From IMG/VR virus record IMGVR_UViG_3300009285_001861: a DNA stretch of 62,019 nt; one strand, written 5' to 3'. Both the position numbers and the translations under genes were made by a program. Of this stretch, positions 4,918 through 45,405 are shown one piece after another. The DNA is from an uncultured virus (IMG/VR IMGVR_UViG_3300009285_001861) (lineage: Duplodnaviria > Heunggongvirae > Uroviricota > Caudoviricetes). The notes below the pieces were generated by a model, which saw only the letters and a list, made by a program, of their open reading frames with translations, had not been told where the DNA came from and searched no databases. Position 1 is the first letter of the stretch. The number at the start of each line of letters is the position of its first letter.

Positions 4918-5114
4918 GTAGCCACCATGGGAACGGGACGGGCAATCTTCACGACTTGAACATTGGCCCCATTGAAGGTCTTGGGAATTGACCCAACTGT
5001 GGTTCCACGTTGGACGTATACGAAGTAGACGTCCCCATACTCATCCTTCCCTATACCAATGCTGGCACCTATTGGAAGCAATGCCTTCAGGGCCTGGATA
5101 GCCTCCCGGGTCAT
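4914..5114 (-). CDS. Hypothetical small protein
   Basis: ATGA-coupled at both ends. Confidence 0.55.
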   Translation of the reverse strand: MTREAIQALKALLPIGASIGIGKDEYGDVYFVYVQRGTTVGSIPKTFNGANVQVVKIARPVPMVAT

Positions 5115-5587
5115 GCTTCTCTTACACTCCCAAGGGCATCCCTGAGCAACTGAAGTACGAATTTGTTGGGGACAATGTGTGGATTCAACTCATCGAACTC
5201 CGCCACGTCCAGGCCAAGCAGGTCCTTGGTGAACTCTGCCACCGCCCCCGACCGAGCAACCCCACCCAAGCAGTTGACCAGCAACAGGTCTCGCCTGTAG
5301 GCGGCATCCTCATGGGCCTTGAGAATGAATCTCACGATCAGCTCGGCCTGTTCAGGTTGGAACAGGGCTTTGGCTGGCAGGAAATCGGTGTCGTCCAGGT
5401 CCAGGTCATCGAATTGGAGTACTAGGGTATCAGCGGAGGGCTCGAAGATGGGCTTCTTCCCAACGTCCGTGATCGAAATGATCCAGACCTTCCCGTGGGA
5501 ACGGGTCAGCACGCCAAGCTCGAACTGGTTTCCGTCCGCCCACTTCAACATGTGGGCTTCGGGGACTGCTGCGACATGAGAGATCAA
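5111..5587 (-). CDS. Predicted Cys-dependent (CX5R) protein-tyrosine-phosphatase-like protein
   Basis: WIISIT, LQFDD, LLVNCLGGVARSGAV; paralog of 33262..33768. Confidence 0.8.
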   Translation of the reverse strand: MISHVAAVPEAHMLKWADGNQFELGVLTRSHGKVWIISITDVGKKPIFEPSADTLVLQFDDLDLDDTDFLPAKALFQPEQAELIVRFILKAHEDAAYRRDLLLVNCLGGVARSGAVAEFTKDLLGLDVAEFDELNPHIVPNKFVLQLLRDALGSVREA

Positions 5588-5650
5588 GATTTCTCCCTGA
5601 GAAGCTTCGCCTTTTGGGCATGCGCCTTCATGCCTGAAGTTACGCCCAAG

Positions 5651-8080: not shown

Positions 8081-9109
8081 CTAAAACGTGTCGTAGGGGA
8101 CCTTGGGGAAGATTTTACCCCGGGTGTTTCGGGTGCCAAAACACTTGATTCTCAGGTCATGGATCTCCTTCAAGATGTCCATGCTCTGCCAGTTGGGGCG
8201 ATCGGTAATATTGGGGGCCGTCATCATCCGCAGGAACTCGCGGATCCCGACCGGTACATCCGAGGAGCGAAGGGACTCATCCCGCTTGGACATTTTCCCG
8301 GTAAAGGCATAGAGCATTGTCATCCCCAGAGAGTACAAATCCGTCTCGGGAATCAGGGGTTTACGGTCTGCCTCCAATTGCTCAGGGGGAGAGAAGTGAT
8401 TGGTGAACCCAATGTTGTGGTCCATCGAGGTTGGCTTGACCATAGACAGCCCAAAGTCAATCATGACCGCCCCGTGGCTTTCCGGCTGGAGGATCACATT
8501 CTGGGGTTTGATGTCCCCATGGACTACCCCATTGGCATGAAGGTAGCTTAGCCCTGCCATCAATCGCTCGAAGATCCACCCACAGTGCTCGGGGTCAATC
8601 TTTCCCAGGTGCTTGACCGCTTGGTCGAGTGTGGGCCCGGGAACGTAGGACATGATGATTGCCACGGCCCCATCATCGAGCTTTAGGACCTCGCGGATGG
8701 CCGGGAATGCGTAGTGCCTGATGTCCCACACGGCACCTGCCTCATTGAGCATGACGGATTCATACTCGGGCCCCACACCCAGGCAACACTTCACACACAC
8801 CAACTTCTGAGTCAGCTGGTGACGGGCCACATAGGTCCGACCCATTGCCCCCTCAGCCAGGAACTTGAGGATCTCATAGGACCCAATGATCGTCTTCCCC
8901 GTGGGGACCGCCCTGCCTGCCTCCCGGTCATACTTGGCCCGCTTTTTCACGTCGCCAAGAATGTCATGGGCTGCCCCGATCTCCGTGAAGAGCTTCTGGG
9001 ACCCACCATGGTCAGGGTGGTGCTTGTTGGCCAATGCCTTGTAAGCGGCATTGATGACCTCAACCGAGGCCCTTGAGTCAACATTCAAAATGCGGTACAA
9101 GTCGGTCAT
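8081..9109 (-). CDS. DnaJ-domain / Hanks-type Ser/Thr protein kinase fusion
   Basis: DLYRIL...HHPD...RAKYD J-domain; AEGAMG, HGDIKPQN, IDFG, PPE, DLYSLG kinase motifs. Confidence 0.93.
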   Translation of the reverse strand: MTDLYRILNVDSRASVEVINAAYKALANKHHPDHGGSQKLFTEIGAAHDILGDVKKRAKYDREAGRAVPTGKTIIGSYEILKFLAEGAMGRTYVARHQLTQKLVCVKCCLGVGPEYESVMLNEAGAVWDIRHYAFPAIREVLKLDDGAVAIIMSYVPGPTLDQAVKHLGKIDPEHCGWIFERLMAGLSYLHANGVVHGDIKPQNVILQPESHGAVMIDFGLSMVKPTSMDHNIGFTNHFSPPEQLEADRKPLIPETDLYSLGMTMLYAFTGKMSKRDESLRSSDVPVGIREFLRMMTAPNITDRPNWQSMDILKEIHDLRIKCFGTRNTRGKIFPKVPYDTF

Positions 9110-9145
9110 GTTCAATAGGCCCTTTTGAGCTTTTCAATTCGAGGG

Positions 9146-32618: not shown

Positions 32619-33265
32619 GGGTGCCTCAATTGTGGGAATCGACGTTCGAGATCGGCCACCAACTGTCGACCGAGTTTTCGGTTTTCCTCTACTTCCTTGT
32701 CAGCAGCCTTCTGTTTCGCGAGTTCCCGGGCATCCCAGGTAGCCTTCTTCATTGGACGCTCCCCGAGTATTTCTGCGAGACGTTCATGGGCCAGTCTGAA
32801 GCCCGTGCCCTTCGCATGGCGCGGCTTTGGCAAATTACAGAGGACATGCGCGGCATCATAGGCAAAAGCCAGCCAGTCGGGACGCACGTTGTCGGGTACG
32901 TACATGATATGGGAGTACTTGCTCATCAGGCACATACCCCGCATAGGACCTTTTACGGGACCTTCGGGCAAGGCATCGACTTTGGCATAGTGGGCCAACT
33001 TGTCTTTGAGAATTCCTGCAAGTTTGGGATCCTTGGAATACTCCTCAAGTTCGTCGGCCCTTCGGGCGGGTTCCTCCAAGTATGCGTTGGGCTCACAGTT
33101 CACCAGGGCCCCATCGTGCCACACATACCCGTTGCCATACCCGAAGAAAAGGCTATTGATGACATCCAATCGGGTGCGGTACAGGGTCTTCCAGTGGGAG
33201 AAACAATCCCGAAGCGTGGCCTGAACACTTTGGGATTCCTTGCGGCGGCTATGCTTGGTACTCAT
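32615..33265 (-). CDS. Hypothetical protein, tandem paralog of 31773..32618
   Basis: Same shared motifs; start MSTKHS coupled to upstream stop. Confidence 0.7.
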   Translation of the reverse strand: MSTKHSRRKESQSVQATLRDCFSHWKTLYRTRLDVINSLFFGYGNGYVWHDGALVNCEPNAYLEEPARRADELEEYSKDPKLAGILKDKLAHYAKVDALPEGPVKGPMRGMCLMSKYSHIMYVPDNVRPDWLAFAYDAAHVLCNLPKPRHAKGTGFRLAHERLAEILGERPMKKATWDARELAKQKAADKEVEENRKLGRQLVADLERRFPQLRHP

Positions 33266-33768
33266 CCTTTCCAGGCCCCCATGAGCAGAGATTTGACGTG
33301 CATGTTGGGAATGACACCCTGGTTCATCCGTTTCCACTCGTCGTAGTCCTGTCCACATACCGTGCGAGCGAAGTCCGATATGGCCCCCGACCGTGAGATA
33401 CCCATGTGGCAATTGACCACGAGGAGGTCTTGACTCTCGGGGCGAGATTCATGGGCGCGACGAATGAAGTCCATGACCTTTTTGGCCATGGTGTCATTGA
33501 AGTAGACCAGCTGGGGGTCTCGTGGCAACTGAACCCCGTTTGGGGTGTACTTGTCCTGGATGTCGTCGAATTGGAGAGCAATACGGTCCTCCAACTCCTC
33601 CGTGATCAGGAGCTTGTAGGTGCCATCGCAGACCCCATTCGTGACCGAGATGATCCAAACCCGGTCGAATTGATGGGCCATCGAGGCAATGCTGTTGGTG
33701 GGGTTAACGCCCGCAAGGAAGTCCGCCATCACCGAGTAGGGTACCGCCCGCGCTGCTACAATCGTCAT
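33262..33768 (-). CDS. Predicted Cys-dependent (CX5R) phosphatase-like protein
   Basis: WIISVT, LQFDD, LVVNCHMGISRSGAI; paralog of 5111..5587. Confidence 0.8.
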   Translation of the reverse strand: MTIVAARAVPYSVMADFLAGVNPTNSIASMAHQFDRVWIISVTNGVCDGTYKLLITEELEDRIALQFDDIQDKYTPNGVQLPRDPQLVYFNDTMAKKVMDFIRRAHESRPESQDLLVVNCHMGISRSGAISDFARTVCGQDYDEWKRMNQGVIPNMHVKSLLMGAWKG

Positions 33769-35761: not shown

Positions 35762-36135
35762 CAAGTCAGCGCAAGTTGGAGATGATCGCCGCAGGCAAGG
35801 AGATGGATGACCAGCATGCCCAGAAGCTTCGGGCCATTGTGACGGAGCTGGACCCCATGGGACTCCGTGCAATGGGTGCCCCTGAGGGGGAATATAGCCA
35901 TGAGATCATGATGCTTGCAGGTTCTGAGTACCGTATTCGTTCGGCACTCACGGCGGCCCGATGTCTATGGGAGATATTTGAGTACACCTTTAGTGGTGTC
36001 CACAAGCACCATCCCGGCTATTATGCAGCTGCGGGTCGACAGGTCTATCAGGCGTTTCGGGATTACGATGATGCCCTGGCCAAGCTCATTGGCATGCCAA
36101 CCCATGAACTTCGGCGGATCGCCAAGAGGATTTGA
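35758..36135 (+). CDS. YugE/DUF1871-like protein
   Basis: ELDPMGL..GAPEGEYSHEI. Confidence 0.6.
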   Translation: MTSQRKLEMIAAGKEMDDQHAQKLRAIVTELDPMGLRAMGAPEGEYSHEIMMLAGSEYRIRSALTAARCLWEIFEYTFSGVHKHHPGYYAAAGRQVYQAFRDYDDALAKLIGMPTHELRRIAKRI

Positions 36136-36968
36136 TGTCCCCTCCCATGCCTCCAGTCATTTTGTTCCGTCCTGGTTGTGTAGGGGAATCCGAAGGGGAG
36201 GAAGAGGCAGCCAACCGATACTTCAAGGTAGTTACCAGACGATCCCAGGTGCCTCATAAGGCTACCGTGGTTGGGCGCTATTCAGTCCTCCCCTTCTACA
36301 AGGAACTGGAGGAGGATCTGAGAGACGCTGGCTCCACCCTTATCAACAGCCACCGGGAGCACAGGTTCGTGGCGGACCTACAGAACTACGTGGGTATCCT
36401 GGATGAGTTGACCCCTAAGACGTGGACCCAACTATCAGATGTTCCTGACTCTGGGGGCCCGTTTGTAGTCAAGGGGGAAACCAATTCCAGAAAAGACAAA
36501 TGGTCTACCCATTGTTTCGCGCGCAACAAGACCGAAGCCATTGAGGTGGCCCAAGTGCTCATGGCGGATGGGCTCATTGGGCAACAGCAGATATACGTCC
36601 GTCAATTCGTAGAGCTTGAGACGTTTCTGGTGGACCCCATCAACAAGCAACCCATCACCCGAGAGTTCCGGTTCTTCTTCCTGCGGGGGAAGCCCCTTGT
36701 AGGTGGCTACTACTGGTCCAACTATCTGGAGGACCTGAACGCGGTGGGTATTGACCCCAAGGCATCGGAGGTCCCCCAGGAGTTCCTGCTTCAGGTAGGG
36801 AACCGGGTCAAGGACCATGTAACGTTTGTGGTGGTGGATGTGGCCAAGACCATGGATGGTCGGTGGATTGTGATTGAGTTGAACGATGGCCAGATGAGTG
36901 GGCTGTCGTGTATTCCCCCTGAAGACCTGTACCGGGCAATGGCCCTGAATCTTACCGAGGAGAAGTAG
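36135..36968 (+). CDS. ATP-grasp domain protein (R2K-like/DUF4343)
   Basis: PFVVKGETNSRK, VRQFVEL, EFRFF, VVDVA...WIVIELNDGQMSG. Confidence 0.88.
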   Translation: MSPPMPPVILFRPGCVGESEGEEEAANRYFKVVTRRSQVPHKATVVGRYSVLPFYKELEEDLRDAGSTLINSHREHRFVADLQNYVGILDELTPKTWTQLSDVPDSGGPFVVKGETNSRKDKWSTHCFARNKTEAIEVAQVLMADGLIGQQQIYVRQFVELETFLVDPINKQPITREFRFFFLRGKPLVGGYYWSNYLEDLNAVGIDPKASEVPQEFLLQVGNRVKDHVTFVVVDVAKTMDGRWIVIELNDGQMSGLSCIPPEDLYRAMALNLTEEK

Positions 36969-36971
36969 ACC

Positions 36972-37691
36972 ATGAAGCCACTGTTTGGATGGTTTGGAAA
37001 TAACGATGAGCAAGAGGCCCAGACCTTGAAGCTCGAACGCGAACGGAACTCCCTCTACCAGGAGAACCAGAACCTGAAGAACAGCCTTCAAGCGGTTACC
37101 GCCGAAAGAGACATGCTACAGGAGGCCCTGACCAACAATGCGGGTACCTGCTACGCTGTCCTTCACAGGAAGATTGCGTGGCAGCGTCGGGTCCTCCGGG
37201 ACCTAACGGACCTCCACAACTGGTCTCAGTCGGGGTTTCGGATGTTTGACCTCATCCTCAGGCTTCAAAACACCCTGAAACGTTTGGATGGAATGCTGGA
37301 CCAGTCCCAACAGGGCACCCCAGTCAAGCCCCCTGTGGCCAAGGCCCCAACGGCAGCAAGTATCGCGGAACCCTTCCTCCCCTTCCTCCCAGGAATCCCC
37401 ACCATGGATGACCTGACGCGGGCAGCCAAGGCGTCTGTGTCTCCGCCAGTCATGGTGCGAGCATCCATCAAGCTCGATAAGAACATGTACTCAGAGGTTC
37501 TTCCGCATCCGGTGACCATGACGGGGAGACAGCTTCTGACCCTCGCCAACAAGACCCCTGAGACCCACAAGCTCATTCAGCAACTGCCCAATGGGACCAG
37601 GAACATTGAGGCGGATGACACGGTGGAGTTACAGGGCAACTTCGGGGTGGCCCGGTTCAAAACACTGCCCCGTAGTCAGACCGGGGGGTGA
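36972..37691 (+). CDS. Coiled-coil + multiubiquitin-type beta-grasp (Ubl) protein ending in Gly-Gly
   Basis: C-terminal IKLDK...TMTGRQLLTLANKTPETHKLIQQLPNGTRNIEADDTVEL...GVARFKTLPRSQTGG*. Confidence 0.8.
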   Translation: MKPLFGWFGNNDEQEAQTLKLERERNSLYQENQNLKNSLQAVTAERDMLQEALTNNAGTCYAVLHRKIAWQRRVLRDLTDLHNWSQSGFRMFDLILRLQNTLKRLDGMLDQSQQGTPVKPPVAKAPTAASIAEPFLPFLPGIPTMDDLTRAAKASVSPPVMVRASIKLDKNMYSEVLPHPVTMTGRQLLTLANKTPETHKLIQQLPNGTRNIEADDTVELQGNFGVARFKTLPRSQTGG

Positions 37692-37694
37692 CCC

Positions 37695-38204
37695 TTGGCC
37701 AACAACCATCCTGGCTACTTCCTGGTAGCTGCAACGGGTCATAGGCCGGAAAAAATCGGTGGGTACAGCCTAGAGGTTGCTCTCCGCCTTCGGAGATTTG
37801 CCACCCAATGCCTCCGACAGATCCCCGAGACCACCCACGTCATTAGTGGAATGGCCTTGGGGTGGGACCAAGCCATAGCGGAAGCCGCTCTTGACCTGGG
37901 TCTCCCCCTCATCGCAGCCGTACCTTTCTTGGGCCAGGAATCAATGTGGCCCGCGCAATCGCAGGTCCACTATCACGAATTGCTTGCAAAGGCTACCAGG
38001 ATCGTGTATGTGTCGGAGCCCGGGTATGGGGCAGAGAAGCTCCAAAAGCGTAACGTCTGGATGGCCGACCGGTGTGATACCATGTTGGCCTTGTGGGACG
38101 GAACCCGGGGCGGGACATTCAATTGTGTCCGGTACACTGAGCGGGTGGGCAAACCCATCGTGAACGTGTGGGACAAGTTCCAAGAATTCCTGAAGGCGGC
38201 GTGA
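37695..38204 (+). CDS. YspA-like SLOG family protein
   Basis: TGHRP, ISGMALGWDQ, QKRNVWMAD, WDGTRGGT. Confidence 0.9.
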   Translation: MANNHPGYFLVAATGHRPEKIGGYSLEVALRLRRFATQCLRQIPETTHVISGMALGWDQAIAEAALDLGLPLIAAVPFLGQESMWPAQSQVHYHELLAKATRIVYVSEPGYGAEKLQKRNVWMADRCDTMLALWDGTRGGTFNCVRYTERVGKPIVNVWDKFQEFLKAA

Positions 38205-44514: not shown

Positions 44515-45405
44515 ATGAGCCGCAAGAAAATTGCTTTCGTTAGGGCATCTCCCAAAACACGTGGGTTCCCATACCTGCCCGACAAGACTCCAGGGCGTGG
44601 GAGGATTCCATACTACAATACAGACCAGAAGGATCCCGCATACATCCCCTTTGTGGATGTCTGCTGGTGGAGTGACAACTGTGCAGACGCTGCCCAAGGG
44701 CTTAGACGGCTAGGATATGAGGTTTGTGCCTTTGACTTTGACAGCGATAGGCTACCTGAGCTGCCTCTCTCCAAGCACACAATCGTGAAGGCAGATATTC
44801 GCACTACCCGAAAAGCCCTTGACCTTCTGGGGGTCCGGCAGCCCAAGAACGTGGACCTTCCATGGAGCCTACGCAAGTACCGGCACCGTAAGGTTTGGTC
44901 TTCTACTCTTGGGGATGTCCGAAAGGAAGTTGAGGAAACCAAGACGTCACTGTTCATCAAACCCCTCCGGTGGCAGAAGGCATTCAATGGCCATGTTGTA
45001 TATTGGGACCCCAACAAGTACAACCCGAGAAATGGCACCTGGGGTGGGCTATCTTATGATCACGAAACAACCGGGTTCCCCCCTGACTTTCCGGTGATGG
45101 TTTCGGATGTGGTCGATATCTCCACATCCCCTGAGCACCGAATCTACGTGGTCAAGAAGAAGATCCTGCCCACGAGTCTGGGTGGGTGTAGGGGGTTCAC
45201 TCAAGCCCGTCGGGTAGCCGAGCAGATGGTCCGGGACTTCAAAAACCAACCCATCTCCTACGGGTTGGACATCGCCCAAATAGAGGACGGACCCTATGCC
45301 CTCGTAGAGGTCAACGACGGCTTCTCGGTAGGCAACTACAACCTGTCCTTTACCCGTTACGCCCAAGTTATTGAGGCCCGATGGCGCGAGATGGTGTCAA
45401 GCTAG
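44515..45405 (+). CDS. ATP-grasp domain protein (R2K-like), second copy
   Basis: LFIKP...KAFNG, EHRIYV, YGLDIA...LVEVNDGFSVGNY. Confidence 0.82.
   Translation: MSRKKIAFVRASPKTRGFPYLPDKTPGRGRIPYYNTDQKDPAYIPFVDVCWWSDNCADAAQGLRRLGYEVCAFDFDSDRLPELPLSKHTIVKADIRTTRKALDLLGVRQPKNVDLPWSLRKYRHRKVWSSTLGDVRKEVEETKTSLFIKPLRWQKAFNGHVVYWDPNKYNPRNGTWGGLSYDHETTGFPPDFPVMVSDVVDISTSPEHRIYVVKKKILPTSLGGCRGFTQARRVAEQMVRDFKNQPISYGLDIAQIEDGPYALVEVNDGFSVGNYNLSFTRYAQVIEARWREMVSS

Follow-up and report, generated by a model that had tools for sequence, protein, structure and literature searches.

An orphan ubiquitin-like protein related to Type I BubA in a giant phage, a possible decoy of host Bub enzymes

The window analysed here is a stretch of 62,019 nucleotides that lies inside a linear phage record of 485 kb, about 92% complete. 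In this window a gene for a ubiquitin-like (Ubl) protein was located on the plus strand between genes for an ATP-grasp ligase and a SLOG protein. The coordinates originally predicted for the Ubl gene and the spacing of 3 bp to both neighbours proved exact, with the ligase ending at 36968 and the SLOG gene starting at 37695. The features of the region, with the evidence for each, are the following.

36135..36968, plus strand: R2K-clade ATP-grasp ligase, 277 aa (Pfam R2K_3 76.8 bits, R2K_2 49.7 bits)
36972..37691, plus strand: helix-linker-BubA fusion gene, 239 aa (Pfam Multi_ubiq, codon use, singleton search)
36990..37307, plus strand: long N-terminal helix, residues 7-112, likely a coiled coil (single-sequence model, heptad count)
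37308..37409, plus strand: Pro/Ala-rich linker, residues 113-146 (sequence and single-sequence model)
37410..37688, plus strand: region derived from Type I BubA, residues 147-239, a pre-domain segment plus the beta-grasp (alignment, fold)
37650..37688, plus strand: C-terminal tail of the Ubl, residues 227-239 (80 bacterial loci, 120 proteins, Ca2+ ligand mapping)
37695..38204, plus strand: YspA/DprA-type SLOG protein, 169 aa (Pfam YpsA 38.6 bits)

Contigs from four sequencing runs contained no differing letters compared to the stretch where they covered it. One contig of 2076 bp covers the ligase gene and the entire Ubl gene, but it comes from a run from which this DNA may itself derive. No other Multi_ubiq gene occurs in the phage genome, and the codon use of the Ubl gene is genome-like (CAI 0.76-0.77 vs 0.735+/-0.033 for the genome); with its codon use ameliorated, the gene appears to be an old, diverged resident of this genome. 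Met145, at position 37404 with AGGA upstream, is a weak candidate for an internal start that would yield a BubA-sized product of 95 aa, as such motifs also stand upstream of 230 of 1892 internal ATGs, a background of 12%. Scans for promoters and terminators gave counts at chance level.

A Pro/Ala linker followed by a C-terminal domain of the multiubiquitin type had been proposed for this protein, and both were borne out. Residues 182-233 matched Multi_ubiq (PF14452) with 30.4 bits in Pfam (cut-off 24.5), which places the protein in the Multi_ubiq / BubA family, and AlphaFold2 predicted a beta-grasp fold with a pLDDT of 85 for residues 160-239 using an alignment of 81 rows. When the domain was compared with known structures using Foldseek, the top seven rows were bacterial multi-ubiquitin chains (8u38, 9cd2, 9d5b, 9d59) with TMq values of 0.63-0.77 and E values of 1.4e-3 to 8e-3, none of them below 1e-3, and BubA (9ea8_B) was found at rank 17 with a TMq of 0.71. 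In a viral structure library the highest-ranking rows were weak matches throughout, to ubiquitin-like proteins from viruses of eukaryotes. The linker, at residues 111-143 in the single-sequence model, was of low confidence there. For the N-terminal part a coiled coil had been claimed, of which the long helix was recovered as one helix over residues 7-112 in the single-sequence model (mean pLDDT 55); heptad periodicity was only moderate, with a best a/d hydrophobic fraction of 0.54-0.60, and a coiled coil is plausible for this predicted helix. No relative of the helix was found among Atlas matches at 0.9 or above, among the 149 R2K loci described below or in family searches. LmuB, suggested by a PADLOC match of 17.8 bits, was rejected as the identity of the helix, the match probably reflecting a generic coiled coil. 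The full-length protein had no relatives among proteins of 131-419 aa and is a singleton.

The absence of E1, E2 and JAB genes from the window was confirmed and could be widened to the whole 485-kb record. No E1, E2, JAB or BubE was detected by Pfam in 500 phage ORFs (497 of the 612 called, each 95 aa or longer, and three more), a ThiF family search of the phage genome found nothing, and six-frame scans with BubB, BubCD and BubE profiles gave no match. Two matches, one to JAB (13.4 bits) and one to DUF6527 (12.4 bits), were discarded as short and under the cut-off, and neither was supported by the BubCD and BubE profiles. The record, about 92% complete, contains neither the BubB, BubCD and BubE of a Type I Bub operon nor the BilB (E2), BilC (JAB) and BilD (E1) that accompany the Ubl in Bil, with no ThiF, JAB or E2 scoring over the cut-off. 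About 8% of the genome may be missing from the record, and such enzymes could be encoded there.

The likeness of the Ubl protein to its relatives starts at residue 147. The domain alone recovered 16 other representatives, and a small profile recovered 1280 clusters, of which 120 were listed. An alignment of 22 bacterial relatives led to 167 bacterial genome loci; the best 80, chosen by their likeness to the bacterial copies, were kept. BubB (Prok-E2_E) was fused to BubA or located directly behind it in all of these best 80 of 167 loci, and our own profiles detected BubCD in 77 and BubE in 74 of the same set. All 28 ORFs picked from bacterial BubA operons were confirmed by Pfam, and one BubCD from a bacterial locus matched the solved Citrobacter BubCD with an E value of 4e-87. 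Residues 147-239 of the phage protein showed 40-46% identity to bacterial single-domain BubA. In a tree the phage domain was placed on a long branch (1.55 vs a median of 0.2), and no supported group around it pointed to a donor lineage or host. By these alignments and operon contexts, the donor of the domain was a BubA of Type I Bub and not of Bil.

The terminal Gly of the phage protein, G239, aligns with an invariant Gly in 80 of 80 bacterial loci and in 120 of 120 listed proteins. According to the available text of PMC11601596, BubCD cleaves after a single Gly and adenylates that Gly. The protein had been described as ending in a free GG, with conservation of GG in homologs as a point to be checked. 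The free terminal Gly was confirmed, while GG as a family motif was not: among the best 80 of the 167 bacterial loci, 71 tails ended in EG and nine in DG, this tail lying outside the search patterns. Only the last Gly is kept in BubA relatives, and the GG end of the phage protein is a private change; seven of the 612 ORFs in the phage genome end in GG.

The tail of the phage protein retains R228, F229, T231, P233, T237 and G239 in the exact register R-F-x-T-x-P-x-x-x-T-x-G, and P233, T237 and G239 are located beyond the last strand. Residues A227, S235 and G238 stand in for near-invariant acidic residues. The acidic tail of Type I BubA (E of G-V-E-R-F, D/E at -5 and E/D at -2) is absent from the phage protein; no acid stands at -2 in the solved Citrobacter BubA either, so that this position is not universally acidic. 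The charge of the phage tail is +3 compared to -2 to 0 in all of the best 80 of 167 bacterial loci. In total, 9 of 28 conserved columns were changed (0-5 in bacteria). Non-acidic conserved columns were kept in 17 of 22 cases, whereas 5 of 8 acidic columns were lost, three of them within the last 13 residues; this excess of acid loss was not significant (Fisher p=0.078), and the E227 column counted in it was part of one search pattern. With the register and the non-acidic columns kept despite the long branch, the tail looks selected. Positions 227 and 235 align with E148 and D85 of Methylobacterium Ubl3, which the available text of PMC11601603 describes as site-1 Ca2+ ligands from different domains. 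The phage protein has one domain with A227 and S235, in contrast to the three beta-grasp domains and E148- and D85-type ligands of the Ca2+-assembling Ubl3. From this alignment we infer that the two positions might have a Ca2+ role in single-domain BubA.

The Multi_ubiq beta-grasp is shared with BubA of the Type I Bub (6E.1/DUF6527) operons, arranged as BubAB-BubCD-BubE (Ye et al., PMC11601596, available text; PDB 9ea8, 9d59), and like BubA the phage protein keeps its terminal Gly at the conjugation position. It differs from BubA in that no BubB, BubCD or BubE was detected with it, in its fusion to an unrelated helix, and in its TGG end with three acidic positions lost, where the relatives end in EG or DG. 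The phage protein would work like BubA, yet it is no Bub system. The coiled-coil-Ubl1 (CC-Ubl1) arrangement is a known bacterial architecture of Type II Bil and Bub operons (Gong et al., PMC11601603; Chambers et al., 10.1101/2023.09.26.559546, available texts). Those proteins are encoded in complete bacterial operons, whereas no sequence relative was found for the phage helix, and the phage fusion is therefore probably independent of CC-Ubl1. The anti-phage system Bil (BilABCD) uses a Ubl with an obligatory C-terminal Gly, according to the available text of Hor et al. (10.1101/2023.09.04.556158), and Type II BilA has the Multi_ubiq fold in common with the phage protein, 8u38 being the top Foldseek row. 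In contrast to Bil, the nearest relatives of the phage Ubl are found in Bub operons with Prok-E2_E, a JAB-ThiF fusion and DUF6527. PADLOC gave no match on the Ubl region.

A Ubl of this Type I origin is rare in phages. None turned up in four pattern scans of IMG/VR, tblastn against 50,697 phage records returned only the genome of this phage, and Multi_ubiq was over the cut-off in none of 48 records related by their capsid protein, only three of which were at least 90% complete. A Multi_ubiq match of 14.9 bits in one capsid-related record (G063) was recovered neither with the Ubl profile nor with Pfam and was rejected. Two Multi_ubiq clusters in the Atlas have Uroviricota as the commonest recorded phylum (scores 0.89) and serve as leads only. 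A 65-aa Multi_ubiq ORF of another subtype was observed in the tRNA/tmRNA array of a complete 411-kb phage (G020, L152:1495-1692, 26.5 bits); it has no terminal Gly and ends right after a run of T, where a sequencing slip may have occurred.

Other Bub components were also detected in phages. In two sets of virus records, DUF6527 scored above the cut-off in one of 50 and in one of 42. Orphan BubE/DUF6527-like genes were identified at L066:10444-10761 (G047), in G057 (L344) and in L345-L347; the phages with BubE-like genes include the cultured jumbo phages FLC9 (L345, gp341) and pEa_SNUABM_29 (L346, pEaSNUABM29_00188) as well as Dulem virus 40. A Ser/His pair and a Cys cluster were aligned in the genes of L066 and L345-L347, and the 3 kb around them showed no further Type I Bub gene; the BubE-like match in G057 (L344) was made by Pfam alone. 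The orphan proteins are candidate anti-Bub deconjugases, and the genes hint at a conflict between phages and Bub.

The ligase upstream of the Ubl gene retains the invariant residues K113, R156, E177/R179, D235 and E248-x-N250 in an alignment of 36 rows. It is assigned by sequence to the R2K clade (Burroughs et al., PMC4431377; jumbo phages, PMC7824862; available texts) and, although Pfam R2K_3 scored best, the assignment was left at clade level. The ExGD motif that the available text of PMC4431377 gives for the last strand of R2K.3 is absent. The ligase has E248-L-N250-D-G instead, a standard ExN motif, and all 36 aligned rows share E248, N250 and D251. Relatives of the ligase formed 1327 clusters at E<=1e-10, indicating a widespread phage accessory gene; a sequence search with the R2K profile gave no solved structure, and in 29 capsid-related records no ortholog was found, only one weak R2K.2-like match. 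A second R2K gene, an R2K.2 paralog (R2K_2, 79.6 bits; window 44515-45405), follows the Ubl gene at a distance of about 7 kb and has no Ubl as a neighbour. Of the 149 R2K loci, 14 had a SLOG gene in their flanks; in the loci inspected, several genes separated it from the R2K gene, apparently in one shared gene order. In two large phage records, stand-alone short ThiF/E1-like genes were observed no more than 3 kb from an R2K gene (L059:4514-5149, 212 aa, and L007:9654-10208, 185 aa), with no Ubl detected alongside. A GG-ending ORF directly after the R2K gene in L017 did not match the Ubl profile and was discarded.

The leading explanation, possible though somewhat short of probable, is that the phage Ubl is a pre-matured decoy that competes for the Type I Bub enzymes of the host. 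The protein would act in trans on a putative host Bub machinery. Since the Gly adenylated by BubCD is already its last residue, no processing would be needed, and the protein could bind and occupy the homodimeric host E1 or be charged by it, perhaps at both of the E1 sites should the helix form dimers. Host E1 and E2 would be drawn off from host BubA, to the benefit of the phage, and the loss of acidic residues matching Ca2+ ligands might release the phage protein from the BubA self-assembly that Ca2+ controls. Both neighbouring genes, for the ATP-grasp enzyme and the SLOG protein, would be unrelated accessories with no part in the decoy. A decoy that jams a host ubiquitin-like defence was one option of the original prediction; its target would be Type I Bub rather than Bil because the nearest relatives are found in Type I Bub operons. 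In favour of a decoy are the Type I Bub origin, the lack of matching enzymes in the searched phage record, the selected look of the tail and the ameliorated codon use. A precedent exists in orphan defence parts that serve as counter-defence (available text of PMC11825919), and the apparently intact orphan BubE genes of phages such as FLC9 and pEa_SNUABM_29 count in its favour as context. Against a decoy stand the singleton status of the protein, a host with a Bub operon that is unproven, and the status of Bub itself. In the available text of PMC11601596 the authors found no Bub operon that protected against phage, and the available text of PMC13373217 (2026) repeats that no anti-phage protection has been shown for Type I Bub. 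In addition, the changed columns and the reversed tail charge could abolish recognition of the phage protein by E1. That the phage protein is an inhibitor of Type I Bub at all is possible to about the same degree.

Singleton status, long branch, the nine changed columns and the reversed tail charge would also be expected of a domain that has been repurposed, the beta-grasp now mediating interactions of a helical protein with no conjugation, or that is in slow decay, and the free terminal Gly may be inherited, as 41 of the 120 listed relatives already have a free end at the conserved Gly. We regard this as unlikely but worth serious weight; against it, P233, T237 and G239 are still in exact register past the last strand and the ORF is intact and codon-adapted. 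The same origin and tail are equally what would be seen if host BubCD and BubB were hijacked and attached the phage Ubl, with its helix as cargo, to host or phage targets from which the phage profits. The available text of PMC11601603 reports natural coiled-coil-Ubl1 tags in five Bil II and three Bub operons, so the architecture is compatible with conjugation. However, no target or E3-like gene was identified in the phage, the changed acidic tail may block transfer and the helix has no known relative, which leaves hijacking quite improbable.

The original prediction had further offered conjugation by the ATP-grasp enzyme itself, in which the R2K ligase would make an acyl-phosphate at the C-terminal carboxylate of the Ubl and ligate it to protein amines with no E1 or E2. 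If true, Ubl conjugation would have a chemistry not described before. The genes are adjacent on the same strand at 3 nt, the catalytic residues are intact, and R2K enzymes are predicted protein-modifying ligases whose targets are not known (PMC4431377); they are sporadic genes of jumbo phages, and the available texts of PMC7824862 and PMC4431377 make no link to a Ubl. Synteny gave no support. We collected 149 R2K loci, 69 of them viral and the other 80 the best of 354 metagenomic ones; at 95% identity they fall into 125 clusters, and for 102 clusters the sequence extends 1 kb or more downstream. A Type I-like Ubl was found in the flanks of none of the 149 with our Ubl profile, which is nearly blind to other Multi_ubiq subtypes (another subtype scores 5 bits). 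A Pfam search of whole virus records, covering 50 of the 69, found a Multi_ubiq ORF in one, the Gly-less ORF of a different type in the tRNA array mentioned above, about 55 kb from its R2K gene, and 11 of 12 near-complete R2K phages had no Multi_ubiq. Conversely, none of the best 80 of 167 bacterial BubA loci carried an R2K gene, and the second R2K gene of this phage stands without a Ubl. Tight gaps are ordinary in this genome, with 142 of 414 same-strand neighbours separated by -8 to 10 nt and 3 nt the second commonest gap. A recent, lineage-specific pairing would leave no synteny; even so, we consider conjugation by the ligase highly improbable. With no Type I-like Ubl at these R2K loci, no R2K gene at the 80 BubA loci and tight gaps normal here, the adjacency is most likely due to chance in a mosaic region, the option of the original prediction that fits best. 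The ATP-grasp enzyme is probably a neighbour of the Ubl and not a partner, and the SLOG gene is an unrelated accessory neighbour.

What is new here is an orphan, Gly-ready BubA, Type I-derived as judged from its relatives, that a giant phage encodes in fusion with a novel helix. A literature search covering few subscription journals found no paper on a phage-encoded BubA or BilA, and no published account of a conflict between phages and Bub. The word 'ubiquitin' is absent from the main text of an anti-defence catalogue and of a 2026 review, and in the available text of Hor et al. (10.1101/2023.09.04.556158) the speculation concerns only DUB domains in phage tail proteins. A BubA that is codon-adapted and pre-matured and whose tail has been re-tuned, alongside the orphan BubE-like deconjugases of other phages, points to a real interaction between phages and Bub, and these genes are concrete reagents for testing it. 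If the decoy reading holds and the phage Ubl inhibits Type I Bub, this would be evidence for Bub in phage-host conflict. The protein could also be used to probe the role of the acidic tail and the Ca2+ ligands in single-domain BubA.

Several other genes of the phage record (G000, L156-L179) were recorded. Two paralogous PTP/DSP-like phosphatases are encoded on the minus strand of the window at 33262-33768 and at about 5114-5650, the first with a CxxGxSRS motif. Pfam revealed a rich conflict and repair repertoire including NAD synthase, Macro, NUDIX, ADP-ribosylglycohydrolase and ART domains, in addition to several RNA ligases, RtcB, Thg1, RF-1, PTH2, GroEL, a caspase-like C14 peptidase, a SET domain and a DnaJ-kinase fusion (window 8084-9115). 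A Volactin-like actin was found at L173:2748-3788 (232 bits). The major capsid protein (L170:910-1782) is strongly conserved across a large uncultured clade; it had 490 IMG/VR matches, the best 80 of them at 89% identity or more, and the nearest cultured phage was 48% identical.
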